Shown in pieces: positions 18,376-59,056 of a DNA stretch of 64,000 nt (its first letter is position 1; each line of letters starts with the position of its first letter). The notes under the pieces were generated by a model. It did not search any database. It saw only the letters and a program-made list of their open reading frames with translations, and was not told the origin of the DNA. Both the position numbers and the translations under genes were made by a program. The stretch is from assembly GCA_963514005.1 (NCBI GenBank), contig OY740807.1, positions 2,356,001 to 2,420,000 on the forward strand. The letters run 5' to 3'. The DNA is from Raja brachyura. Lineage: Eukaryota.

Positions 18376-19942
18376 AGAAACATAGAAACATAGAAATTAG
18401 GTGCAGGAATAGGCCATTCGGCCCTTCGAGCCTGCACCGCCATTCAATATGATCATGGCTGATCATCCAACTCAGTATCCCGTACCTGCCTTCTTTCCAT
18501 ACCCTCTGATCCCCTTAGCCACAAGGGCCACATCTAACTCCCTCTTAAATATATCCAATGAACTGGCCTCAACTACCCTCTGTGGCAGAGAATTCCAGAG
18601 ACCCACCACTCTCTGTGTGAAAAAATTCCTTCTCATCTCGGTCCTAAAGGATTTCCCCCTTATCCTTAAGCTGTGACCCCTTGTCCTGGACGTCCCCAAC
18701 ATCGGGAACAATCTTCCTGCATCTAGCCTGTCCAACCCCTTAAGAATCTTGTAAGTTTCTATAAGATCCCCTCTCAATCTCCTAAATTCTAGAGAGTATA
18801 AACCGAGTCTATGCAGTCTTTGTTCATAAGACAGTCCTGACATCCCAGGAATCAGTCTGGTGAACCTTCGCTGCACTCCCTCTATGGCAATAATGTCCTT
18901 CCTCAGATTTGGAGACCAGAACTGTACGCAATACTCCAGGTGTGGCCTCACCAAGACCCTATACAACTGAAGTAGAACCTCCCTGCTCCTATACTCAAAT
19001 CCTTTTGCTATGAAAGCTAACATACCATTGGCTTTCTTCACTGCCTGTTGTACCTGCATGCCTACTTTCAATGACTGGTGTACCATGACACCCAGGTCGC
19101 GCTGCATCTCCCCTTTTCCTAATCGGCCACCATTTAGATAGTAGTCGGTTTTCCTATTTTTGCCACCAAAGTGGATAACCTCACATTTATCCACATTATA
19201 CTGCATCTGCCAAACATTTGCCCACTCACCCAGCCTATCCAAGTCACCTTGCATTCTCCTAGCATCCTCCTCACAGCCAACACTGCCCCCCAGCTTAGTG
19301 TCATCCGCAAACTTGGAGATATTGCCTTCAATTCCCTCATCCAGATCATTTATGTATATTGTAAATAGCTGGGGTCCCAGCACTGAGCCTTGCGGTACCC
19401 CACTAGTCACTGCCTGCCATTGTGAAAACGACCCGTTAACTCCTACTCTTTGCTTCCTGTTTGCCAGCCAGTTCTCTATCCACATCAATACTGAACCCCC
19501 AATGCCATATGCTTTAAGTTTATATACTAATCGCTTATGTGGGACCTTGTCGAAAGCCTTCTGGAAGTCCAGATACACCACATCCACTGGTTCTCCCCGA
19601 TCCACGCTACTAGTTACATCCTCGAAAAATTCCACAAGATTCGTCAGACATGATTTACCTTTCGTAAATCCATGCTGGCTTTGTCCAATGATTTCACCAC
19701 TTTCCAAATGTGCTGCTATCCCATCTTTAATAACTGACTCTAGCAGTTTCCCCACTACCGATGTTAGACTAACTGGTCTGTAATTCCCCGTTTTCTCTCT
19801 CCCCCCCTTCTTAAAAAGAGGGGTTACGTTTGCTACCCGCCAATCCTCAGGAACTACTCCAGAATCTAAAGAGTTTTGAAAGATTATCACTAATGCATCC
19901 ACTATTTCCGGAGCTACTTCCTTAAGTACTCCTTAAGTCCTT
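18376..19942 (-). mobile_element. Young 5'-truncated CR1 with open RT
   Basis: 476-aa ORF 18472-19902; 10-bp TSD AAATGTATGT at 18366-18375 and 19943-19952. Confidence 0.95.
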
Positions 19943-20139
19943 AAATGTATGTTATAGTGTTTTTCTTAAAGTTAAAAGCAAAGTTAAAGTCATAAAAAGT
20001 TATTGTTATATGTCGCTAACAATGTAATCCTTGTTGTTTAGCAGAAGGTGCTGTGAATTGTTTTAACCCTTCACAGGTAAAACTGTACACTAAAAATGTT
20101 GATTAGTGAGCTTACACTGTAATAGCGCAGGCCTATGGG

Positions 20140-20365
20140 ACAGGCCACGCCAGCAGCGCCTGACAGGGCTGCTTCATGTACGAAAGTGCCGGCCTACGGG
20201 AGAGCCGTGCCAGCAGCGCCTGGTACAGGGCTGTTTCATTTGTGACATTACCGGCCTACGAGAGAGCCGTGCGAGCAGCACCTGGTACAGGGCTGTTTCA
20301 TGTCAAAAAGCACCGGCCTTTACGAAAGGCAGCACCAGCAACGCCTGGGACAGGGTTCCTCATAT
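20140..20365. repeat. About 60-bp tandem repeat in the degenerate DIRS
   Basis: CAGCAGCGCCTGGTACAGGGCTG units near 20151, 20211, 20273, 20336. Confidence 0.8.
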
Positions 20366-21704
20366 TCACACATAATCTGCTACGTCCATGGAGTCGGGAG
20401 ATGATTCTCCACCAGGGCTGGATTGCAAGGCCCCCGGAATCGGGGATGAATTCCTCACCGGGGCTGGATAGTGGGTTTGAAACGACTATCCCAAATACAG
20501 TAACTGTTGCATACAGTGCTACAGAGGTCTCCCTCTTGGAGGCAGAGACCAAGACGAGTCAGTATCCTGCTTACACTGAGTCTCAGGGTATGGCCGTGGG
20601 ACATACCCCAAGGGATGAAGGGCACGTGTCAGAGGTACCTTTTTCCTGACAACAAAGTTGCCATCCCAGCAGAATATTCTATTTGGGTTAAGGCCAATGG
20701 GTTTGTATCAGTATCGGTATCTTGCGGCCTGCAGCAGCGCCTGTTTAGGGTTGCCTACGAATCACCCTCTCTGAGGAAGGAAGAGCAAAAGGTCAAGATA
20801 TAACTGACTCCAGGCTCTAAAGAAGTCAATAGAACATACTTAAGCACATCTTTGCTGGCAGTGAACAGCGCCAACAGGGGGATGTGAGAGCTAGCCGCTG
20901 AATCTGTTATTCAGGTGGTCCTATTCAACAGGGGAAGAAAGCCTGGCAGACGAATCAATTAGGCCAACGGCAGGCATGTCACCGTTTCAGAACGCACCCC
21001 AGGCGCTCATCGACAGTAAGCTGTTCACTGGAGCTGGTGGCAGCATGATAGCTCAGAAATTCCATGCACCTTACTGATCCTTCTCAACAAAATGGGTCTA
21101 GCACTTCCAAAATATGGGTAGTGCACCGTTCACAAGCTGTACTATTTACATTTGTTTTCTACACCATACAAAGGGTAAAAATATTTGGTTGAGGCACAGT
21201 CGGAGCATTCCAAGCAAGTTTGGATTATGGCCAGGGTTGTTTTAAAAAAAATTAAGGATCGGAAACTAGGCAAAATTTCTCATGCAAACCACCCACGGAA
21301 TAAGGCAGGAGTGGCATGTTATTATGAAGAATGTAGAGTGTCGGGCATATGAACTTTCCGAATATGAAAACTTATTTTCCTGACTAACAACAGATTCATA
21401 AGGGTCAGAGATCCATGCTATGCAAATCACATTACAGAGGTTATCAAAGACAATATACCTGTACTATAACAGTAAAGCTTTGGGGTATGGGATAAACTGT
21501 TGGACATTGGGATTTACCTTTAATTTTACTTCGGAGTCACGTGAGTGACTACGTGAAGACCCCGTCAGCACGCATGCGCGACATATCGTCGTACGCATGC
21601 GGAAGCGACGGTCGGGAGGAGCGGGGCTCCTCCAGCACAAGTTTAAATAGCTTACGCCAGGTAAGTCTCACCGGAGGAGTGAGTCGACGACATAGTGTAT
21701 AGCG

Positions 21705-22910
21705 ATGGAAGCACGAAAATCGAAAAGAACAGCGGCCAAAGCAGCTGCCAAGGAGAGCAGCCAGCAGAGAGCCGTCTCTCCAGAGCTACAGGTTTTACCT
21801 GCAGCTCCCGACTTATCGCCCTTTGGGACCGTTGGTACGCCACGGTCGGGCGGGAAAACCACCCGGAAGTCGGCCGGGGCCGACTCAGCGGAGTCCGGTC
21901 CCGAGGACACCCCGTTCGCAGATAGCGACGGAGGTCGTCTAAACCGCATGGAGCGGATGATGGAGCAAATGCTCCAACGTGACCTGCTAATGCAGGGGCA
22001 GGGTCACAGTGGTACTCCTAGCAGGCCCACGGCAAGTTCCTATCGAGGACTGCCCAATGTCTCCCCCTCTATACAGGGGAGCATTGAGGGTCAGAACTGG
22101 GCTGACCCAGAAGAAGGGGAGCTGGCTGAATTACCGACGGTGTCAGGGGTGTGTGAAGACTACATGGATATGGTAAGCAAGCATGCTATGCCTAACAAGA
22201 AGGGCTTACCAATCCACCCTAAGCTGGCTACCAGCATTAACTATATGGCAACGAACCAGCTGCAGGAACAGGCCATTAATGCTACTGCAGATAAATATAT
22301 GGCACCTGAGAACTGCAACTCATTGAATGTACCTGCAGTAAATAACCCTATATGGGGAAACATGAGCCCCTCAAGTAGAGGCCAGGAGATCAAACTTCAG
22401 AGGATTCTGAAGCTCCTAACCGCAGGGATTACGGCAGTGGCAAGAACTGCAGTGGGTGTGGATATGCCGGAAGAATTACAGGATGCTTTGGCTCTACTCT
22501 GTAATACTCAGTATGAGATCAACAATTTTAGAAAAAACATCATAAAGCCGGCGCTTAACCCCAAGTTTGCGGGGTTGTGTAAGCCTGGGAAGACTCAGCC
22601 TCCAAGCCTGCTGTTCGGGGAAGATCTCCCAAAGCAGGTTAAAGACCTTGATGAGGAGGACAAGGCTTTGGGCCTTATAAAACCTGGCTACACTAAGCCG
22701 CATCACCCACACAGACAGCACCCCTACACATCCACCGGGCAGAGTTACCATAACAGGTCTGCCGGTGGTGAAAGCTCGAAGGCCGGCATTCCTGCACAAC
22801 GGTCTTTTTTAGGCCAAGGCCCAGGCCAGCCTTCTTGGAAGATGCGCCACTCCCAGAACACCCACAACCAACCAAGGAAGCAAGGACAGAAACCTCCACA
22901 CCGGCAGTAA
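21705..22910 (+). CDS. DIRS ORF1 (gag-like)
   Basis: 401-aa ORF, first in the element, good Kozak (GCGATGG), LFGEDL..VK motif typical of DIRS ORF1. Confidence 0.85.
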   Translation: MEARKSKRTAAKAAAKESSQQRAVSPELQVLPAAPDLSPFGTVGTPRSGGKTTRKSAGADSAESGPEDTPFADSDGGRLNRMERMMEQMLQRDLLMQGQGHSGTPSRPTASSYRGLPNVSPSIQGSIEGQNWADPEEGELAELPTVSGVCEDYMDMVSKHAMPNKKGLPIHPKLATSINYMATNQLQEQAINATADKYMAPENCNSLNVPAVNNPIWGNMSPSSRGQEIKLQRILKLLTAGITAVARTAVGVDMPEELQDALALLCNTQYEINNFRKNIIKPALNPKFAGLCKPGKTQPPSLLFGEDLPKQVKDLDEEDKALGLIKPGYTKPHHPHRQHPYTSTGQSYHNRSAGGESSKAGIPAQRSFLGQGPGQPSWKMRHSQNTHNQPRKQGQKPPHRQ

Positions 22911-22912
22911 CC

Positions 22913-24847
22913 ATGGAGGTAGGTGGGTCTGGGGTCCCCAGAAACACATCTGGTCTAAATTCACTTTGTGTAGGGGGCAGGTTGCACATGTTCTTCGAGA
23001 ATTGGCTCACTTTTACCTCTGATCCTTATATACTCAGAAGTATTCAGGGCTACAAAATTGAATTTATTCACGAACTCCCTACCCCGGTACAGCATGCACC
23101 TAGCCGAAAATTCGTCCTTTCCCAAAAAGAAAGGGCAGCAGGGCATGCTGAACTACAGAGATTAATAGAAAGAGGGGTAATTGAGAAAGCCATCAAAGAA
23201 CCTCAGGAGTTCGTGTCTAATATATTCACTAAAAATAAAAAAGACGGCGGGTGCCGCATCATCATAGATTTGACCGATCTGAATACTTTTGTCCAGTATA
23301 TTCATTTTAAAATGGACACCTTCGATACTGCTATACAGTTAATAGCTAATGGGTACTACATGGCATGCATTGACCTCAAAGATGCATATTATTCAGTACC
23401 CATACACAAGGATCATAGGAAATACTTAAAATTTATCTGGATGGGACAATTATGGCAATACAAAGCTTTGCCTAATGGGTTGTCGTCAGCACCCAGATTG
23501 TTTACCAAGATATTAAAACCAGCTTTGGCCTATTTAAGGAAACAGAAACATACTGTTATGGCCTATCTTGATGACATCCTCATAGTGGGGGAGAATTTGG
23601 AAATGGCTACTTTGGCAGTTACAGCCACGAAACATCTTTTTCAGAAGCTGGGATTTTTGATCCATCCAGATAAATCAATATTGGAACCCTCTACCACCAT
23701 GAAATATCTGGGGTTCATTATTGACTCAGTGCAAATGTCTGTCACGTTGCCACCAAGCAAGGTGGAAGACCTGATAGAGGCTTGCAGGAGCCTCATTGGC
23801 ATTAAGGTCCCATCCATTCGGCAGGTGGCCAGGGTGATTGGGAAGATAGTAGCTGCATTTCCTGCAGCACAATTTGGGCCCTTACATTACCAAAACTTAC
23901 AAAGAGCCAAAATTACAGCGCTCAAAAATCATACTGGCCATTTCGACAGGCCTATGAAAATTCCGGGAAAGGCAAAAGCCGAATTATATTGGTGGATGGG
24001 TAATGCCCAAAATTGCTCCAAACCTATCAATATCATCAATCCCTTGATCATCTTACAAACGGATGCCAGTGCCAAAGGGTGGGGAGCTACTAACACTACC
24101 TCTAGCTGTGGAGGTAGATGGAGTGCACCAGAGTTAACCCTATTCAAAAACTTGGGGATTAACTATTCAGAAATGCTGGCAGCATTTCACGGCCTTAAAG
24201 CATACTGCACTAATATGCACAAAGTTCATATTAGAATACAAATTGACAACACCACGGTGGTAGCATATATTAACCATATGGGCGGTATAAAGTCGATATC
24301 GTGTGATGAATTGGCTAACAATATCTGGCACTGGTGTCTGCAAAGAGAAATTTGGATCTCAGCTACTTACCTTCCAGGTAAGCTAAATACAGTGGCAGAC
24401 ACCAGATCACGTAAATTCAACGACAACATAGAATGGATGTTGGATCGGAATGTGTTTTCAGATATTGTAGAACGTTATGGAACACCAGATATCGACCTTT
24501 TCGCGTCCAGGCTAAATCACCAACTACCAACATATGTTGCTTGGGAGCCAGACCCGGGGGCAGTAGCGATGGATGCCTTCTCGCTACATTGGGGGGATCT
24601 ATTTTGCTATGCATTTCCCCCTTTCTGCCTCATCAGTCGGGTCTTGCAGAAAATAAAGCAAGACTATGCATCGGGTATTTTGGTGGTGCCCGACTGGCCT
24701 ACCCAACCATGGTTCCCTATGGTACAGAAGATGGCCACAGAACCCTGTATCAGGGTGAACAAAAGACCAAGCCTGCTCGTTCATCCTGTTACAGGAGAAT
24801 GTCATCCATGTCATGACCGCATGGACTTGTTAATTTGCAGATTTTAA
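22913..24847 (+). CDS. DIRS pol: reverse transcriptase + RNase H + N6-adenine methyltransferase-like domain
   Basis: RT motifs IDLKDAY, LPNGLSSAP, YLDD. RNase H motifs TDAS..GWG, DNTT, N.VAD..SR. MT motifs DLFASRLN and YAFPPF. ATG at 22913 in ACCATGG context; the ORF track opens the frame at 22835. Confidence 0.95.
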   Translation: MEVGGSGVPRNTSGLNSLCVGGRLHMFFENWLTFTSDPYILRSIQGYKIEFIHELPTPVQHAPSRKFVLSQKERAAGHAELQRLIERGVIEKAIKEPQEFVSNIFTKNKKDGGCRIIIDLTDLNTFVQYIHFKMDTFDTAIQLIANGYYMACIDLKDAYYSVPIHKDHRKYLKFIWMGQLWQYKALPNGLSSAPRLFTKILKPALAYLRKQKHTVMAYLDDILIVGENLEMATLAVTATKHLFQKLGFLIHPDKSILEPSTTMKYLGFIIDSVQMSVTLPPSKVEDLIEACRSLIGIKVPSIRQVARVIGKIVAAFPAAQFGPLHYQNLQRAKITALKNHTGHFDRPMKIPGKAKAELYWWMGNAQNCSKPINIINPLIILQTDASAKGWGATNTTSSCGGRWSAPELTLFKNLGINYSEMLAAFHGLKAYCTNMHKVHIRIQIDNTTVVAYINHMGGIKSISCDELANNIWHWCLQREIWISATYLPGKLNTVADTRSRKFNDNIEWMLDRNVFSDIVERYGTPDIDLFASRLNHQLPTYVAWEPDPGAVAMDAFSLHWGDLFCYAFPPFCLISRVLQKIKQDYASGILVVPDWPTQPWFPMVQKMATEPCIRVNKRPSLLVHPVTGECHPCHDRMDLLICRF

Positions 24848-25818
24848 AACGGCCACTTCACGGATTCGGACTCTCCAACAGGACCATTGATACCATCACA
24901 GCAGCCTGCAGAGAGTCCACAAGAAAGCAGTACCTGACCTACATCAGGAAATGGGAAGGATTCTGCGTCACAGCCAACACGACATATGAAACCGCCACCA
25001 TAACGGAAGTGCTGGAATTTTTGGCTACCCTTCATTTCGATGAAGGTTTGAGCTACAGTGCCATTAACTGTGCCAGGAGTGCCCTATCATCCTACTTGGG
25101 CAAGGGGAGTGACCAATTGGGAATTGGGTCACATCCTCTAGTATCCAAATTTATGAGGGGAATATTCAATTCTAATCCCCCCAGGGCCAGATATAGCCAT
25201 ATTTGGGATATCAGCACAGTCTTGACTATGCTGCGAGGATGGACACCAAACACGGGACTCCCTTTGGCAAAACTCACCTACAAGATGGTCATGATTATGG
25301 CACTTATCACGGCACAACGGGTCCAGTCCCTGCACAAACTCAACCTGGATGAAATGACAATCACCAGTTACAAAATCACTTTCTATGTGCAGGGACTGTT
25401 GAAACAAGATCGACCCGGAGTGTCTGGACATACTTTGGAGTTTCTGGCTTACCCAGCAGATCCTCGTCTTTGTATCGTCACATTAATCTTACGATACATT
25501 ACAGTCACTCAAAATCTCAGGGGCACGGAAACAGCTTTGCTTGTTAGTCACAAGAAGCCCCATCACAGAGTCACGGTGCAAACCATTTCCAGATGGTTAA
25601 GGGTGGTACTGGATGCGGCGGGGGTGGATACCAACAAATATAAATCTCACTCCACCAGGGCAGCATCCACCTCGGCGGCTAGAAGGATGGAGGTACCGTT
25701 GGATCACATCCTGGCTACAGCGGGTTCGAGTAATGAAAAGACCTTCCACCGCTTTTACTATAAACCCGTGACCTCCCCTGACACTTATGCAGGGAGGATT
25801 TTGAGTGCTGCCAGATAG
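24835..25818 (+). CDS. DIRS tyrosine recombinase (YR)
   Basis: SAM-like N-terminus (Y..W..F, RSALS) and catalytic TAQR, HSTR, F.RFY. No in-frame ATG until residue 107. Confidence 0.93.
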   Translation: MQILKRPLHGFGLSNRTIDTITAACRESTRKQYLTYIRKWEGFCVTANTTYETATITEVLEFLATLHFDEGLSYSAINCARSALSSYLGKGSDQLGIGSHPLVSKFMRGIFNSNPPRARYSHIWDISTVLTMLRGWTPNTGLPLAKLTYKMVMIMALITAQRVQSLHKLNLDEMTITSYKITFYVQGLLKQDRPGVSGHTLEFLAYPADPRLCIVTLILRYITVTQNLRGTETALLVSHKKPHHRVTVQTISRWLRVVLDAAGVDTNKYKSHSTRAASTSAARRMEVPLDHILATAGSSNEKTFHRFYYKPVTSPDTYAGRILSAAR

Positions 25819-36244: not shown

Positions 36245-36760
36245 CCATAAAGCAGCCCTAACAAGGTACCCCTGGTGCCCATGAAGCAGCCCTGAACAAA
36301 GTAGCTGCTGGCCCGGACTTTCCCATAGCCCAGTATTTGCCGTAGATTTGGCATTCTCATCAAGCAGCCCTGAGCAAAGGTGCTGCTGGCATAACCTCTC
36401 CAATAGGCTAGCCTACCATAACTTGGCATTCCCTTAGAGCAGTCCTGAGCAAAGGTACTGCTGGCACCGCCTCTGCAATAGGCTAGCCTGCCATAGTTTG
36501 GTATCCCCATGAGCAGCCCTGAGCAAAGGTGCTGCTGGCACAGCCTCTCCAATAGGCTAGCCTGCCATAGCTTGGCATCCCCATGAGCAGTCCTGAGCAA
36601 AGGTACTGCTGGCACAGCCTCTCCATCAGGCTAGCCTACCATAACTTGGCATCCCCATTAGCAGTCCTAAGCAAAGGTACTGCTGACACAGCCTTTCCCA
36701 TAGGCTGGCACTGCCATAACTTGACATTCCCATGAAGCAGCCCTACCCAAAAGTGCTGCT
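36245..36760. repeat. About 74-bp tandem repeat, about 7 copies, inside non-autonomous DIRS
   Basis: GCAG(C/T)CCT(G/A)AGCAAAGGT recurs at 36364, 36439, 36513, 36587, 36661, with a degenerate copy at 36737. Confidence 0.9.
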
Positions 36761-36959
36761 CTCTAAATTAATTCCTAGAGGTGAAATCTCCCAACTTTCC
36801 CAATTGTACTGATTATTTTGTCCATATCCTGGGGATTATTGTAGTTTGAGAAACCCATAGGTGAATTTCCCCTCACCAGGAATCCATATAAATATAATAT
36901 ATATATAAATATATACCCACGGTACCCTCATGGCACGCAGGCTAATGATTTATGTGAAT

Positions 36960-37315
36960 TAACCCCATTACCTGGGGACTACTGTGGTCTGGGAACCACA
37001 CATATACCTGGGTTTCCCCTGCACCGGGAACCCAGCCTAACCTTTAGGTTTGTTTTAACCCCATGCGCTGGGGACTACTGCGATGTAAAACCGCATATAC
37101 TTGGGATTCCCCTGCACCGGGAACCCAGCCTAACCATTTAAGTTAGTTTTACCCAATGTCCCCGGGACTACTGCGGTCTAGAACCGCATATGCTTGAGTT
37201 TATCCTCCCCGGGAACCCAGGCAGACCGTTCAGGTCCGTTAAGCCCCATCCCCTAGGGACTACTGCGGTCTAAAACCGCACTATTCTCGGGTTTCCCCTA
37301 CCCGGGAACCCAACG
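36960..37315. repeat. About 92-96-bp tandem repeat, 4 copies
   Basis: GGGACTACTG..CCGGGAACCCA recurs at 36975, 37071, 37164, 37256. Confidence 0.88.
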
Positions 37316-45339: not shown

Positions 45340-48240
45340 TGGAGGGTGGTGTGGGAAAGGTTAATGTACTGAATAGGCAAAAAGCCGGAGAGAGGGGAAG
45401 GAGGGTTGGTTAAACTGCATGTATTTTAATGCAAGGGGCTTGACGGGTAAGGCAGATGAGCTTAGGGAGTGGATAGCTACGAGTGACTGGGACGTTGTAG
45501 CCATGACTGAAACCTGGAAAGGGGAGGGGCAGGACTGGCAGCTCAATGTTGTGGGGTACAGGAGCTTCAGGAGAAACAGGGTGAGGAAAAAAGAGTTGTA
45601 TTGTGGTTAAGGAGGATGTCACGGCTGTGTTCAGAGGTGACATTATGGACAGTTTGTCTAGTGGGTGGAGCTGAGCAACAAGAAAAGGATGATCACCTTG
45701 TTGGGAGTGTACTACAGACCCCCCCACACGTGAGAGAACAACGGTGGATCTAGTATTGGGAAATTGGGAAGGGCAAGTTAATGAAGTGTGTGTGGAGCAG
45801 CCTTTTGGGACATGTGACCACAGTTCGATTAGTTTTAAGATAGCTATGGGTCGGGACAGAGAGGGTCCACATGTTAAAATGCCCAACTGGGGTAAGGCCA
45901 ACTTTGAGGGTATGAGAGTAGGTCTTGCTCAAGTTGACTGGAGCAGGTTATTTGATGAAAAGGGACATCGGCCAAGTGGGATGTCTTCAAAAGTGTAATG
46001 ATGAGAGCTCAGGATGTGTACGTCCCCGTTAAGAGTAAAATGCAAAGCAGGCAAACGTAGGGAAACTTGGCTGACAAGGGAAATGGAGATGTTAGTCAAA
46101 AACGAGAAGGATGCATGGGACTGGTATAGGCAGATGGGATCAAGTGCATCCCTTCAGAAGTTTCGGGAAGCAAGGAGCAAATTAAAAAAGGAGATCAGAA
46201 GGGCAAAAACAGGCCAGGAGATAGCTCTGGTGGGTAGCATGAAAATAATCCCAAAAGATTTTATAAATACTCGACCTTCACACGGGAGGCCTGGTCCCCA
46301 ACGCAATTACCTCGCCATCCCTCCTTCTACCCCTCTCCTCCTCCATTCTCCCTCATCCTGCAGAACTCCCCTCACGCTTCACCCTCCCTCTTCTTTTTCC
46401 TCTCCTCCTCCCCTCCCCCACTGCCACCCTCACCTCTCCCTCCCTTCTCCCTCCCTTTCATTTCCCCTCCCTCACTCACTCAATGAAAATCGTAATGTTT
46501 CCAAATGAAACCTCCCCCCTATCCCATCCCTTCAAAATGATAATCGCGATGTTTTTTTTGAAAAAAGCATTTTTTAAAGTAAGTGAGATTCGGGATCGCA
46601 TTGTGCCGTCATACGCTGCTAACGGGCTGTACAAGTGGAAGTGATTTTTGTCAAAGTGGTTTTCGTACAATTTAAAATGTGAATAACCGAGTTACCCCTC
46701 GGATTTGTATTAAATCTTTTCCCCTTCACCTTGATCCAATGTCCTCTGGTCCTCGATTCCCATACTCTGGGTAAAAAACTCTGTGCATCTAACTGATCTA
46801 TTCCTCTCATGATTTTGTATGCCTCAATAAGATCCCTCATCCTCCTAAGCTCCGTGGAATAGAGACCCAGCCTACTTAACCTCTCCCTGTAACTCACACC
46901 CTCTAGTCCTGGCAACATCCTCGTAAATCGTTTCTGAACCCTTTCAAGCTTGACAATATCTTTCCTATAACATGGTGCCCAGAACTGAACGCAATATTCT
47001 CAATGCAGTCTCACCAACATCTTATATAACTGCAACATGACCACCCAACTTCTATACCCAATACTCTGACTGATGAAGGACAAAGTTCCAAAAGCCTTTT
47101 TGACCACCTTATCTACCTGCGACTCGACCTTCAACGAACCATGCACCTGTACTCCTAGATCCCTCTGCTCTACAACAAGACCCAGAGGCCGACCATTTAC
47201 TGTGTAGATCCTGCCCTTGTTCGACATCCCAAAATGCAACACCTCACACTTCTCTGTATTAAATTACATCAACCATTCCTCCGCCCACCTGGCCAATCGA
47301 TCCAGATCCTGCTGCAATCGTTCACAACCATCTACACTATCTGCAAAACCACTAACCATCAGCAAACTTGCTAATCTTGCCCTGTACGTTCTCATCCAAA
47401 TCATTGATGTAGATGACAAACAGTAATGGGCCCAGCACCGAACCCTGTGGCACACCACCAGTCACATGCCTCCATTCTGAGAACCAACCTTCCACCATCA
47501 CCCTCTGCTTCCTTCTATGGAGCGCTTTTGCTTCCATTCAGCTATCTCTCCTTGGATCCCATGAAATCTAACCTTCCAGTGCAGCCTACCATGCGGCACC
47601 TTGTCGAACACCTTACTAAACTCCGTGTACACTACATCTCCAGCGCTGCCCTCATCAACCTTTTTGGTCACGTCTTCAAAACAATCGATCAGATTTGTGA
47701 GACACGACCTCCCAATTACAAAATCATGCTGACTGTCCCTAATCAGCCCTTGCCCATCCAAATGCCTGTATATTCTATCCCACAGAATACTCTCCAGTAA
47801 CTAACTAACTACAGATGTTAAGCTCACCGGCCTATAGTTCCCAACATTTTCCCTGAAGTCCTTCTTGAAAAGAGGCACAACATTTGCCACCCTCCAATCC
47901 TCTGGCACCTCTCCTGTATTGAAGGACGACTTATAAATTTCAACCAGGGCTCCCGCAATTTCCTGCAATATCCTCGGATATATCTGATCAGGCCCCAGAG
48001 ATTTGTCTACCTTCAAACACGACAGTACCTTCAGTACTTCCTCGACGGTAACCCTGACTGCTCTCATGACACTTCCAGTGACCGCTCCAATTTCCTCCAT
48101 CCTCCTGTCTTTCTCATCAATAAATACAGAGGAGAAATACTCATTGAGGACTTTACCCATCTGCTGTGGCTCCACACAGAGGTGACCGCTTTTATTCCTG
48201 AGAGGTCCTACTCTCTCTCTAGTTACCCTTTCCCCTCTAT
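45340..48240. mobile_element. One CR1 ORF2 in two orientations (45340-46268 +, 46690-48238 -)
   Basis: The APE half ends at NPKRFYKY and the minus part starts at RGKRVTRERVGP, contiguous in ORF2. Confidence 0.75.
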
Positions 48241-54927: not shown

Positions 54928-55397
54928 CGTTTAGGTTCGTAAACTCGGTTAAAATCTAACCGAGTTTTCACCTACCCACGTGTTCCGTGGATGGTTCAGA
55001 GCGGAAGAGTCCAGCTCCGTGTTTCGTGTGTGTGTCCCCGCCCCCAAATTTGACTAAAGAGCGGCGAGATTGTGCATCTGGCATCCAGAGGGAGCGGTGG
55101 GGGGGGGGGGGTAGGTGGGAAATGGGGAGCAGGATAAACACGTGAGGTTGCGATGGAGGTAGGGGAGACGGGACGCAGAATAGAGGGACCGGCAGACGGC
55201 GGGAGAGGGGGGAAGAGGTCGGTGCGGGACACAGTGTGCTATTGATCAAGAGGAGCAGAATGAGCCGTTTGAGCGGAACTGGTTGTAGTTGTGAATAAGG
55301 CGGCTCCTGGTCGCCAGGTCTTTGCGCCAAACCCCTCAAAGTACTGCGAGGAACCGCGTGAAAATAGACCAATGGAATCACACCGCAGTTTTTCCTT

Positions 55398-55403
55398 TTT
55401 ATT
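55398..55403 (-). terminator. Probable polyadenylation signal of the IgL gene
   Basis: AATAAA on the minus strand about 270 nt after the C-exon stop. Confidence 0.65.
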
Positions 55404-55670
55404 AAGAGCTGCGATACACCAGATCCAATCACAACACGGTTACTGTCTACGTGGGAATCTCCCCCCACTCTGCAGCCAGAGGCAGGAAAACACAGGGGAC
55501 AAATCGACAAAGAAATTCGCACTGATCTCTGAGATAATTACATATTCGTGTTGTTCCCAGAAGTGGACATTGCTATAGGTTACATTGCTCAAGGTGGCGG
55601 CAGACCACAGTGAAGCTCTCTCTGTGTTAAACATAGCAGAGAATTGGCAGCCGATGCCAATGGCACGAAC

Positions 55671-55999
55671 TCAGTTCGCGCAGGTGGACGACGAGACGGT
55701 GTGTCGCAGAGGCGAGCTGAGCGAGCTATGTCCGACGCTGCAGGAATAGCTGGAGCCCTTGTCCCATGCGGCGGCGGGGACCCGCAGGTAACTGCTCAGC
55801 CTGTACGTCTGTTCGGCGTCCGGGGACACGGCGCCCGACGTCACCCCGCTCTCCGTCTCCACGCCGTCCACGGCCCAGCGCAGCGCCACGAAGCCCGGCT
55901 TAAAGCCGCTCACCAGGCAGCTGAGTGTGGCCGAGCCCGTGCCAGTTTCATCCGGAGACGGAGGGAGCAGGAGAAGTGAGGGCTTCCGAGACTCGCTAC
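55671..55999 (-). CDS. Ig light chain type I constant exon
   Basis: Acceptor TCTCCACACACAG|GT. SESRKPSLLLLPPSP..ATLSCLVSGFKPG..W..YRLSSYLRVPAAAWDKGSSYSCSVGHSSL..STCAN*: a C1-set domain with a near-terminal Cys. The three exons total 49+360+329=738 nt, giving an open 245-aa protein. Confidence 0.96.
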
Positions 56000-56116
56000 C
56001 TGTGTGTGGAGAGGCGGAGGAGAAGAGAAACATTAGTTGATGGAGACCGTCGGCAGCGCCACACACCGACCCCAACGCGAGAGAAACGAACTCGGCCACG
56101 GAAAGTGTCAGTGACT

Positions 56117-56440
56117 GGGCGGCGCGGTGGTGCAGCGCTGGAGCAACTGTCTTACAGCGCCAGGGAGCCGGGTCGGATCCTAAATATAGGTGCATGTCTG
56201 TACGGAGTTTGTACGTTTATCACCGTGACGTGTGTGCGTTGGTTTTCTACGAGATCTTCGGTTTCCTCCCGCACCCCTAAGACGTACAGTTGTGTAGGTT
56301 AATTGACTTGGTATCAATGTAAAATTGTCCCTAGTGTGTGTAGGGTAGTGTTCGTTTGCGGGGATCTTTGGTCGGTGTGGACTCGGTGGCCGAAGGGCCT
56401 GTTTTCGGGCTGTCTCTAAAACTAGAACTAAAACTAAAAG
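56117..56440 (+). mobile_element. tRNA-derived V-SINE (HE1-like) in the J-C intron
   Basis: A/B-box head, V-domain GGAGTTTGTACGTT..GGTTTCCTCCC, CR1-like tail GAAGGGCCTGTTT, (CTAAAA)n. Confidence 0.82.
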
Positions 56441-56579
56441 ACCGTCATCACCCCGGCCCCGTCCCCGTCCCTCCACCTGGCGCCGCTCGGCTTTACGTCG
56501 CTCTGTCGAGACGACTTCATTGCGGGGTTCAATAATTCCCCAGCTCTGGAATTCGCTCGAATGTGAATTTGCGAATGTA

Positions 56580-56902
56580 GCTATTTTAGGAGACACAGCA
56601 TGGAAACTGGCCCTCCGGCCCACCGAGTCCACACTGACCATTATTACCCGTTCACACTAGTTCTATGATATCCGCTTCTCGCCCACTCCCCGTACACTCG
56701 GGGCAATTCACCGACGGGCAATTAACCTCCAAACCCGCACGTCTTTGGGATGTGGGGGGGGGGGGGACCGGAGCAATCGCACGGGGTCACAGGGAGAACT
56801 TGCAAACCCCACACAGACAGCACCCGAGGTCAGGCTCGAACCGGGGAATCTGGCGCAGTGAGGCAACATATCTACCATTGAGCCAATGTGCCGCACCCAC
56901 TT
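56580..56902 (-). mobile_element. Second V-SINE, opposite orientation
   Basis: Head GGCACATTGGCTCAATGG..GGTTCGAGCC, V-domain, same tail. Confidence 0.8.
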
Positions 56903-57429
56903 TAAGGAGTTATGGCGGGAAGTACCGGTACCGGAGAGGCCTCCGGATATCCAACACTCCCTGTCAAGTGACGCAAGGGGAGCGGCGGGACGCAGCGCGG
57001 CTCCGCAAACCATTGAGAGGTGAAGAGACGAGGAAGCGACCGGTTCATCCCGGATTACACCCCGAGCCCGCACCAACACGTCCTTTCCCGCTACACTCTC
57101 TAACCGACTTGCCCAACCCGCTGCACAGTATTTCCCTCAATGTCATTCATCAGAATGCCTGCAAATTGTCTTCCTTGTTTCCCCAACATTAACGCGTTTG
57201 ATTGTCGCAAACTGCGACTTGTGTTAACGATGCAGGAATCCCCGCGGGCTAGCGTTCCCCGCAGGCGGGAATACTCTCCCGACCGCTGACATACGGCGCG
57301 GACCCGATGGGCAGAATGGCCTCCCGCGCCGAGTAGAGGCAGAGCAAGTTTTTCCGGAGCGTTCCCGGACTGGGGAATGAGAACGACTGCAAAGGGGATT
57401 CATGGGAACAGAACGAGGGAGTCACTTAC

Positions 57430-57789
57430 TCTTTATATCCAGGATACTCCCAGGGCTGAAGATGTATCCCACGTTGTTTTCCCACACTGCACAGTAGTAG
57501 ACGGCGGCGTCTCTGGGCTCCAGGGTGCCGATGGTCAGGATGTAGCTGTTGGCGGAGGTATCTCTGGACGGTTGGAACCGGTCTGTGATCCCACTGCCAC
57601 GGAATATATCATTATTCGTTTTATACCTTATCACCCGCTCTGGTCTCTCCCCGGGACGCTGTCGATACCAAGTTACAGTGTAACTTGCAACATTTCCGTT
57701 CTGCATCCGACACTCTAAGCGGACGGTTTGTGCCGCGGAGACAGGTCCGGACGTTGGGGTCTGATTCAGGACTGGGATCGCCAGGAGAC
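57430..57789 (-). CDS. Ig light chain type I, germline-joined VJ exon
   Basis: Acceptor TTTTGTTGAAG|GT and donor A|GTAAGT. Encodes GLLA-IPVLNQTP..LECRMQNG..WYRQRPG..DRFQPSRDTSANSYILTIGTLEPRDAAVYYCAVWENNVGYIFSPGSILDIK. V runs directly into J with no RSS. Resembles shark/skate type I VL as I recall it. Confidence 0.95.
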
Positions 57790-58171
57790 CTTCAACAAAA
57801 CACAATGAAAACCTTAATCAAAGCCTCAGAACTAATGGACATTCCTTTAGAATGAGATGATGAAGAGTTTCTTTAGTCCAAGGGAGGTGAATTAATTGCC
57901 ACAGACGGCGGTTTAGGCCAAGCTAAGGCAGAGATAGATAGATCCGTGTTTCGTACGGGTGACAGGGGTTATGGGGAGAAGGCAGGAGAATGGGGTTAGG
58001 AGAAAGAGATAGATCAGATAGAGATTGAATGGCCCGTCACTTATGGACAGATGAAACGACTGGGTGATCTGGAGCCCACAGAAGGTTAGACACGCGTAGA
58101 GCACCGACGATGGTGGAGATTTTAACGAGCCTCGTTGCAGATAATCAGTCGTGAACCAACCCGAGTCTCAC

Positions 58172-58220
58172 CTGCTGGGAGCAGCAGCAGAGGCCACAGG
58201 AGGTACAGCGCTGGGGCCAT
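58172..58220 (-). CDS. Ig light chain type I (sigma-cart/NS5), leader exon
   Basis: ATG at 58220 encodes MAPALYLLWPLLLLPA+G (hydrophobic signal peptide). 49 nt, followed by donor G|GTGAGA (phase 1). Too short for the ORF track. Confidence 0.92.
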
Positions 58221-58319
58221 TCTTCCGGACAGGCGAACACCAAATCTTCAGACCCACTCGTGTTGTACTGCAAAGTCCGGGAGCCGCTCGGGGTCCAGTG
58301 TCTGGAAACCAGAGCCTCT

Positions 58320-58425
58320 GGTTGTCTTTATTAACCGGAATGTAATGAGTGGGAGGGGCCAGGAAACCTGTGTGGGCGGAGACTGATTTCCGGCGCTTTC
58401 GAATCTGCTGGCGGCAAATTAAATG
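58320..58425 (-). promoter_or_regulatory. Putative IgL promoter
   Basis: TATA-like TTAATAAA (58327-58334) about 105 nt upstream of the ATG, GGAA (ETS-like) cores, and a degenerate octamer ATTTGCCG near 58412-58419. Confidence 0.35.
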
Positions 58426-58539
58426 TCGTTTAATTCTTATTGAAATTAATTTATTAGCCAAGTATGTAAACATACCAGGAATTTGATTTGCCAACAATCA
58501 TTCAAAAAACAACAAGATACATAACCACATACAAATTAC

Positions 58540-58900
58540 ACATCGACTTAAACAGCCACCACAGCGGTGTGTGAGAATCCCCAGGGCCACAGCATAAGCG
58601 GAGACCCAAAGCCATCAGTTCAATGTCCGGGCCACACACGCGCTCCTTCACCGTGATGTGACCAGAGTTGTACCGACCGCAGTCACTCTCTCTGCAGTCC
58701 CTGTCCGCCCGAACCGTCCCGTCCACACTCGCAGACTCCGGGATGTCCTCACGGAGCCATGTCCCTGCAAAACACCGAGATCACTGAGCTCACGGCACTG
58801 CCTCCGAGTCCTCACCAGTGCAGGCAGCAAGTCCATCTTGTTTTTCCGGCGACCTCACATTCCCCACTGTGATGGAAGTCAAATAACTTATCCCTAATTT
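58540..58900 (-). mobile_element. Degenerate Rex1-like endonuclease fragment upstream of the IgL promoter
   Basis: RADRDCRES..GHITVKERVCGPDIELMALGLR. Confidence 0.6.
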
Positions 58901-59056
58901 TCTCCCAGCTCCGCGATGTTAAAGCCGTTGTGCAGACGAGATACGTTGAAAAAGTCGCATCTCCGTCGAGGAAAGAGATTTTAAAAAATGGTCCCCCCCC
59001 CCCCCCCACATAATACAAAATGGATGTACATTAAAAATGTATGTACAGAGGAGATT

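Follow-up and report, generated by a model that had tools for sequence, protein, structure and literature searches.

An intact, germline-joined type I immunoglobulin light-chain cluster in Raja brachyura

Structure of the cluster and its surroundings

The window, i.e. the whole 64-kb stretch of DNA that was analyzed (64,000 nucleotides), carries an intact immunoglobulin light-chain cluster on its minus strand, with 738 nt of coding sequence for 245 amino acids and a stop codon (Table 1). Both introns are of the GT-AG type and in phase 1, all four splice sites are canonical GT/AG, and the fused VJ exon lies between the acceptor ...TTGAAG and the donor GTAAGT. Pfam analysis of the 245-residue product gave a V-set domain (E 3e-16) and a C1-set domain (E 4e-21). 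The split leader, the single V-set domain with its J segment, the single C1-set domain and the compact layout are those of a cluster-type light-chain gene. The original prediction, made by a model from the letters of the DNA, had described this leader, VJ and C anatomy with phase-1 splicing and a 245-residue open frame, and both the coordinates and the Pfam domains agree with it; the CDR3 is CAVWENNVGYIF, as it had been read.

Table 1. Coordinates of the cluster, its neighboring signals and the contigs that bridge the V-J join (window positions).
Feature	Positions	Strand	Remarks
Leader exon, coding part	58172..58220	-	49 nt; ATG at 58220; phase-1 donor GTGAGA
Leader intron	57790..58171	-	382 nt, GT..AG; high-copy repeat (depth at 57856-58043)
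Fused VJ exon	57430..57789	-	360 nt; V-set domain; J motif F-S-P-G; V and J in one frame
CDR3	57461..57490	-	10 residues from second Cys to J Phe; spans the V-J join; no RSS
J-C intron	56000..57429	-	1430 nt, GT..AG; high-copy short repeats
C exon (C1-set), single	55671..55999	-	329 nt; TGA at 55673-55671; end ...TCAN-stop; Cys near end
AATAAA, likely poly(A) signal	55398..55403	-	267 nt past stop; kept in 11/11 clusters
TATA-like TAATAAA	58327..58333	-	~113 nt upstream of ATG; putative promoter role
CpG-rich stretch over gene	55001..59000	.	observed/expected 0.81-0.96 per kb vs 0.41 for bases 1-54000
Bridging contig, run X1	57432-57831		
Bridging contig, run X3	56877-57831		
Bridging contig, run X10	57395-57688		
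Bridging contig, run X12	57405-57592		
Bridging contigs, runs X19 and X20	57398-57800		no gaps, 27-29 differing letters

The region upstream of the gene was searched with the usual TATA and octamer motifs. No consensus octamer was present within 300 nt upstream of the ATG, and the nearest site with one mismatch was found at -316. The block CCCACTCATTACATTCC at 58340-58360 (minus strand), which precedes the ATG by ~130 nt, is almost fully conserved in the two type I subfamilies of this genome (see below), neither of which has a consensus octamer; this block is a candidate promoter element.

Most of the window consists of reverse-transcriptase relics. It contains 19 stop-to-stop frames of at least 200 aa, none of which resembles a host gene (6 judged by Pfam and the rest by eye). 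The claim that the cluster is the only intact gene here therefore stands for host genes among frames of this length, and a retrotransposon at ~21.7-25.8 kb has three open frames. This element (21696-25818, plus strand) has overlapping frames of 404, 691 and 333 aa, which in this order match no family, a reverse transcriptase (Pfam RVT_1) and an integrase N-terminal SAM-like domain. It looks like a tyrosine-recombinase retrotransposon with intact frames, presumably of the DIRS type, and a 62-nt tandem repeat is located upstream of it at 20130-20319. Two further tandem arrays were seen at 36278-36744 (period 74, 6.2 copies) and at 36959-37312 (period 93, 3.8 copies).

The whole 64-kb window has an inverted twin at contig 29:1963970-2026507, aligned in blocks of 9850 nt at 99.94%, 8533 nt at 99.29% and 44070 nt at 99.74% identity. 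The twin lacks a 1.57-kb insert present at 18376-19945 of the window, which either entered here very recently or was lost from the twin. The insert itself is a reverse-transcriptase fragment with a 486-aa open frame. By spot checks the inverted arms could be followed over no less than 140 kb, between ~2.300 and 2.440 Mb, and for one stretch at 2.27-2.28 Mb no match was obtained in the two stretches tried. In three twin pairs of clusters the leader and VJ exons are identical, and the C exons differ at 0, 2 and 1 positions. The twin is compatible with a recent segmental duplication and also with a second haplotype that was retained in the assembly, and the number of type I clusters in this genome may be 8 and not the 11 given below.

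Isotype and inherited state of the V-J join

A protein search limited to 211-2000 residues gave 75 matches among 550 candidates, and the most identical named protein was a type I immunoglobulin light chain of the little skate, Leucoraja erinacea (P0015). Identity to this protein was 85% across the VJ exon and 98/108 (91%) in the C exon, as compared to 38-47% between the C exon and the light-chain C exons on contigs 30 and 32, and both chains have a 10-residue CDR3 and the J motif F-S-P-G. The best 60 matches of a PDB search were engineered mammalian antibodies only. In a V tree of 36 sequences (7 type I sequences and 9 other V loci of this genome, together with 20 of the 75 database proteins) the window gene, four paralogues and P0015 formed one clade with a support of 99/97. 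This clade lies within a larger one of relatives from rays and sharks, and the light-chain V sequences of contigs 30 and 32 are separate from it. CDR3 lengths of 8, 10 and 11 occur among the type I relatives in the tree, where the ray and shark entries may be germline joins, cDNAs or gene models. Judged by sequence identity and the V tree, the gene belongs to the type I (sigma-2) isotype, and the closest named protein points to a skate as host. The type I chains of horn shark and the NS5 chains of nurse shark share this isotype in the tree, with a V identity of 58-67% for horn shark. UrIg and UrIg2 also have a single VJ exon and a split leader but are described with three or more C exons (PMC12227049); such an identity was ruled out for the window gene, where a single light-chain C exon contains the stop and is followed by AATAAA.

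The genome searched comprises 2.7 Gb in 1647 contigs. A DNA search with the VJ exon gave 11 matches, each aligned over the entire V and J; contig 29 carries nine of them (at 1.52-2.41 Mb), and the other two are on contig 47. The matching C exons were likewise 11, one beside each VJ exon at a distance of 1.4-2.1 kb. When the V protein alone was used (150 of 273 candidates scored), the same 11 loci were recovered before identity dropped to 41%, and no split type I cluster was seen among the scored candidates. All 11 type I clusters found are joined, with the introns and both flanks kept in each, and 10 of them are intact, the copy at contig 29:1.527 Mb being frameshifted. The nine copies on contig 29 have one junction length, with variants of one or two residues. 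The pair on contig 47 forms a second subfamily at ~73% DNA identity, with the junction AVRETDAVYY of the same length and the J motif F-G-G-G, and groups with an Amblyraja radiata protein in the V tree (100/100).

Contigs from 8 of 22 public sequencing runs were aligned to the gene. In six of these runs, with six organism labels and from six studies, we found contigs that bridge the join and enter the intron (Table 1); these may be of paralogues and not of this exact locus, and one of the runs may be the source of the assembly. The remaining two (X5 and X7) had no bridging piece among the contigs listed, although one is implied for X7 by a difference at 57462, which lies 58 letters inside a contig end. 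In X19 and X20, second contigs and loose ends suggest that the other subfamily is joined as well. The join is inherited and is not a captured lymphocyte event, since a single lymphocyte could not account for a join found alike in nine paralogues and in six organisms.

Recombination signal sequences (RSS) were sought in the window with consensus patterns, allowing up to 3 mismatches. This gave no 12-spacer RSS (0.85 expected) and one 23-spacer match (0.70 expected) at 46643, ~9 kb away from the gene, and a script scan of all 11 clusters found no RSS after the type I V exons. When 20 other V loci of the same genome were scanned in a similar way, RSS were picked up at 9 of them (three TCR-gamma-like, two sigma-like and four heavy-chain), and the absence at the type I genes is therefore meaningful. 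V and J in one exon, no RSS and retained introns are the properties of a germline-joined gene. Taken together, these results are in line with the original prediction that this is a skate type I light chain, which the comparison with chondrichthyan proteins and the tree clade supported; that it is joined in the germline, as seen in 11/11 clusters and bridged in 6/8 runs; and that no RSS separates V from J. The captured lymphocyte rearrangement that the prediction had named as its possible refutation is contradicted by the nine paralogues on contig 29 and the six organism labels, and its argument from the introns against a processed retrocopy holds, such a copy being ruled out by the presence of both introns in 11/11 copies.

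The comparison of CDR3 among paralogues that had been proposed was made with the five distinct intact contig-29 copies, so that each twin pair was represented once and neither the frameshifted copy nor the contig-47 subfamily was included. Variable sites amounted to 15/69 in CDR1 and CDR2, 2/30 in CDR3, 9/258 in the framework, 78/1602 in the introns and 2/324 in the C exon, so that CDR3 and C hardly vary while CDR1 and CDR2 do. Fisher tests against the introns gave p-values of 2e-6 for CDR1 and CDR2, 0.43 for the framework and 9e-5 for C; these are descriptive only, because the sites are non-independent and the CDR bounds were drawn post hoc, by a Kabat-like rule, after the sequences had been seen. 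For the five copies, pN was 0.13 and pS 0.08 in CDR1 and CDR2, the framework and CDR3 had no silent differences, and C had no replacements. The replacement-rich CDR variation and the conserved C exon point to selection acting on the family.

Other light-chain and antigen-receptor loci of the genome

Two C-domain searches, in which 150 of 280 and 150 of 289 candidates were scored, gave three groups at ~43% identity and above, with 11 members of type I, 27 on contig 30 (including one partial copy that contains a stop) and 2 on contig 32, all of these being lower bounds. No fourth C group that could represent kappa was seen in the best 150 of 280 and 150 of 289. The region at contig 30:11.87-12.93 Mb holds ~26 light-chain clusters, which we take to be lambda-like, with at least three V groups that differ in CDR3 length, and 11 of the 11 V exons examined there are joined. 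Two clusters on contig 32, at 20.06 and 20.09 Mb (L078 and L079), presumably sigma-like, face apart and have open C exons, and are the only split light-chain loci seen among the V loci examined. In both, V is followed by a 12-spacer RSS and by J ~390 nt further on, where a heptamer is present; no J nonamer was found within three mismatches at 12 or 22-24 nt. Possibly, the light-chain repertoire is almost wholly hard-wired, with 11 joined type I clusters, ~26 lambda-like clusters (11/11 examined joined), no kappa and two split sigma-like clusters, a reading that we put forward only tentatively.

At contig 8:88.18-89.24 Mb we observed an array of single-exon VJ-type domains without RSS (L023-L030, L033-L038). 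These have 39-41% identity to type I V and form long branches within the type I clade, and multi-V shark and ray proteins that resemble them top the protein search; we assume that they could be NK-receptor (NCR3-like) genes. Among heavy-chain loci, a V exon at contig 24:41.95 Mb (L072) is joined in frame to J, three joined-looking relics (L069, L076 and L077) are out of frame, and split clusters are located on contigs 2, 3, 9 and 10.

CpG richness was considered as a mark of joined genes, as values for whole loci had hinted. For the V exon plus 500 nt the observed/expected ratio was 0.90 for type I (n=11) and 0.95 for lambda-like (n=11) joined genes, and 0.83 for sigma-like (n=2), 0.97 for TCR-gamma-like (n=3) and 0.71 for heavy-chain (n=4) split genes. 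With 0.71-0.97 at the split loci, the mark is not specific to joined genes. Immunoglobulin and TCR-like V loci, split or joined, lie at 0.7-1.0 as compared to 0.41 for the background of the window and 0.54 for the contig-8 array, which may reflect low germline methylation of antigen-receptor loci in general. Among the papers listed by our literature search, none was relevant to CpG richness of joined genes.

Origin of the join and its meaning

The gene is real and of a known kind, textbook for skates since 1995, when type I genes were reported to be all germline-joined; in the little skate at least 89 clusters were counted and none was unjoined (PMC2192082). These Leucoraja (Raja) erinacea type I (sigma-2, sigma-cart, NS5) clusters have, as here, a V-J-C order with all copies joined, and are described as expressed and 'potentially somatically mutated' (PMC2192082). 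The same source describes the variation pattern seen in our five copies, with inter-copy differences in the CDRs that are mostly replacements. Its count of at least 89 clusters compares with the 11 found here (lower bounds; 8 if the three twin pairs are alleles), and its 'sequence groups' may correspond to the two subfamilies that are resolved on two contigs in the present genome (PMC2192082). In the clearnose skate this isotype is reported to exceed lambda in embryo and hatchling (PMC5192425), and little skate kappa is given as 'not determined' in PMC5985310. What is added here is modest, namely the light-chain inventory of the genome and the finding that the entire window has a near-identical twin in inverted orientation. 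Our literature search, to which subscription papers were mostly inaccessible, yielded no inventory of skate light chains at the level of a whole genome.

We regard the gene, with a probability of about 0.9, as an intact skate type I (sigma-2) cluster whose V-J fusion is inherited and likely goes back to a RAG-mediated germline join in a skate ancestor, followed by copying of the whole cluster. The origin through RAG in germ cells is carried over from the nurse shark kappa (NS4) genes. By this analogy the spacer would have been deleted when RAG cleaved a 12/23 pair of RSS in a germ cell of an ancestor (PMC2193156), and the joined cluster would then have been duplicated whole; one join would suffice for the nine contig-29 copies, and one or two for all eleven. 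The NS4 genes likewise have a joined VJ with introns and serve as the model for germ-cell action of RAG, but they are of another isotype and their joined and split sisters coexist, which dates the joins (PMC2193156), whereas here no split sister was seen. A RAG footprint (P/N nucleotides, trimming) is unreadable, because no split type I relative was seen among the 150 of 273 candidates scored in the genome.

The alternative that survives best bears on the copy and not on the identity of the gene: this cluster could be intact but silent or redundant, either as a passenger of a recent large duplication or as a second haplotype kept twice. The inverted twin of the whole window, at 99.3-99.9% identity and with identical coding sequence, the missing consensus octamer (within 300 nt upstream) and the frameshift in 1/11 copies are in line with it. 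However, the pattern of CDR replacements and C conservation suggests selection at the level of the family, and joined skate type I genes are reported to be expressed (PMC2192082, PMC5192425), and we therefore consider a silent copy unlikely.

Quite improbable is that the gene was never split, i.e. that a single-exon VJ from before the RAG transposon was kept in skates and that shark type I genes were split later. There is some room for such an old unsplit state, because gar, coelacanth and turtle likewise have a joined sigma-2 (PMC5985310); in addition, the direction of change for skate type I was graded 'probable, but not conclusive' (PMC2193156), and the V matches that rank next after type I are the single-exon VJ genes of contig 8. 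Against this, type I is split in horn shark, and nurse shark NS5 has two split genes and one joined (PMC5192425), as compared to 11/11 joined here. Moreover, the sigma-like sister isotype of this genome is split and carries a 12-RSS, the type I relatives differ in CDR3 length (8, 10 and 11), which fits repeated joining, and recent germline joins are documented for NS4 (PMC2193156). A somatic B-cell rearrangement captured by the assembly, or a cDNA-mediated (retro-converted) copy, is barely credible, for even though the records name no tissue for the assembly or the runs and the gene is surrounded by many reverse-transcriptase elements, both introns and the upstream and downstream flanks are kept in 11/11 copies, nine paralogues have a single junction length and the join is present in contigs of six organism labels.

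With an inherited RAG-made join as the preferred reading, a B cell would transcribe the gene and splice leader, VJ and C without recombination, and the chain would pair with a heavy chain via its C-terminal Cys. Diversity would come from the choice among diverged germline copies and from somatic hypermutation, and not from the junction. Antibody genes that are already joined in the germline form a recognized exception to somatic V(D)J recombination and are the chief indication that RAG can act in germ cells; to this the present copy adds a species record and no new concept. A countable inventory with the CDR1 and CDR2 of every cluster makes hypermutation and one-chain-per-cell expression directly measurable. 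If the sigma-like pair on contig 32 rarely rearranges, B cells must choose one light chain from ~35 ready-made genes, and, should the repertoire be hard-wired as tentatively suggested above, the complete inventory would make light-chain exclusion without recombination directly testable in single cells.
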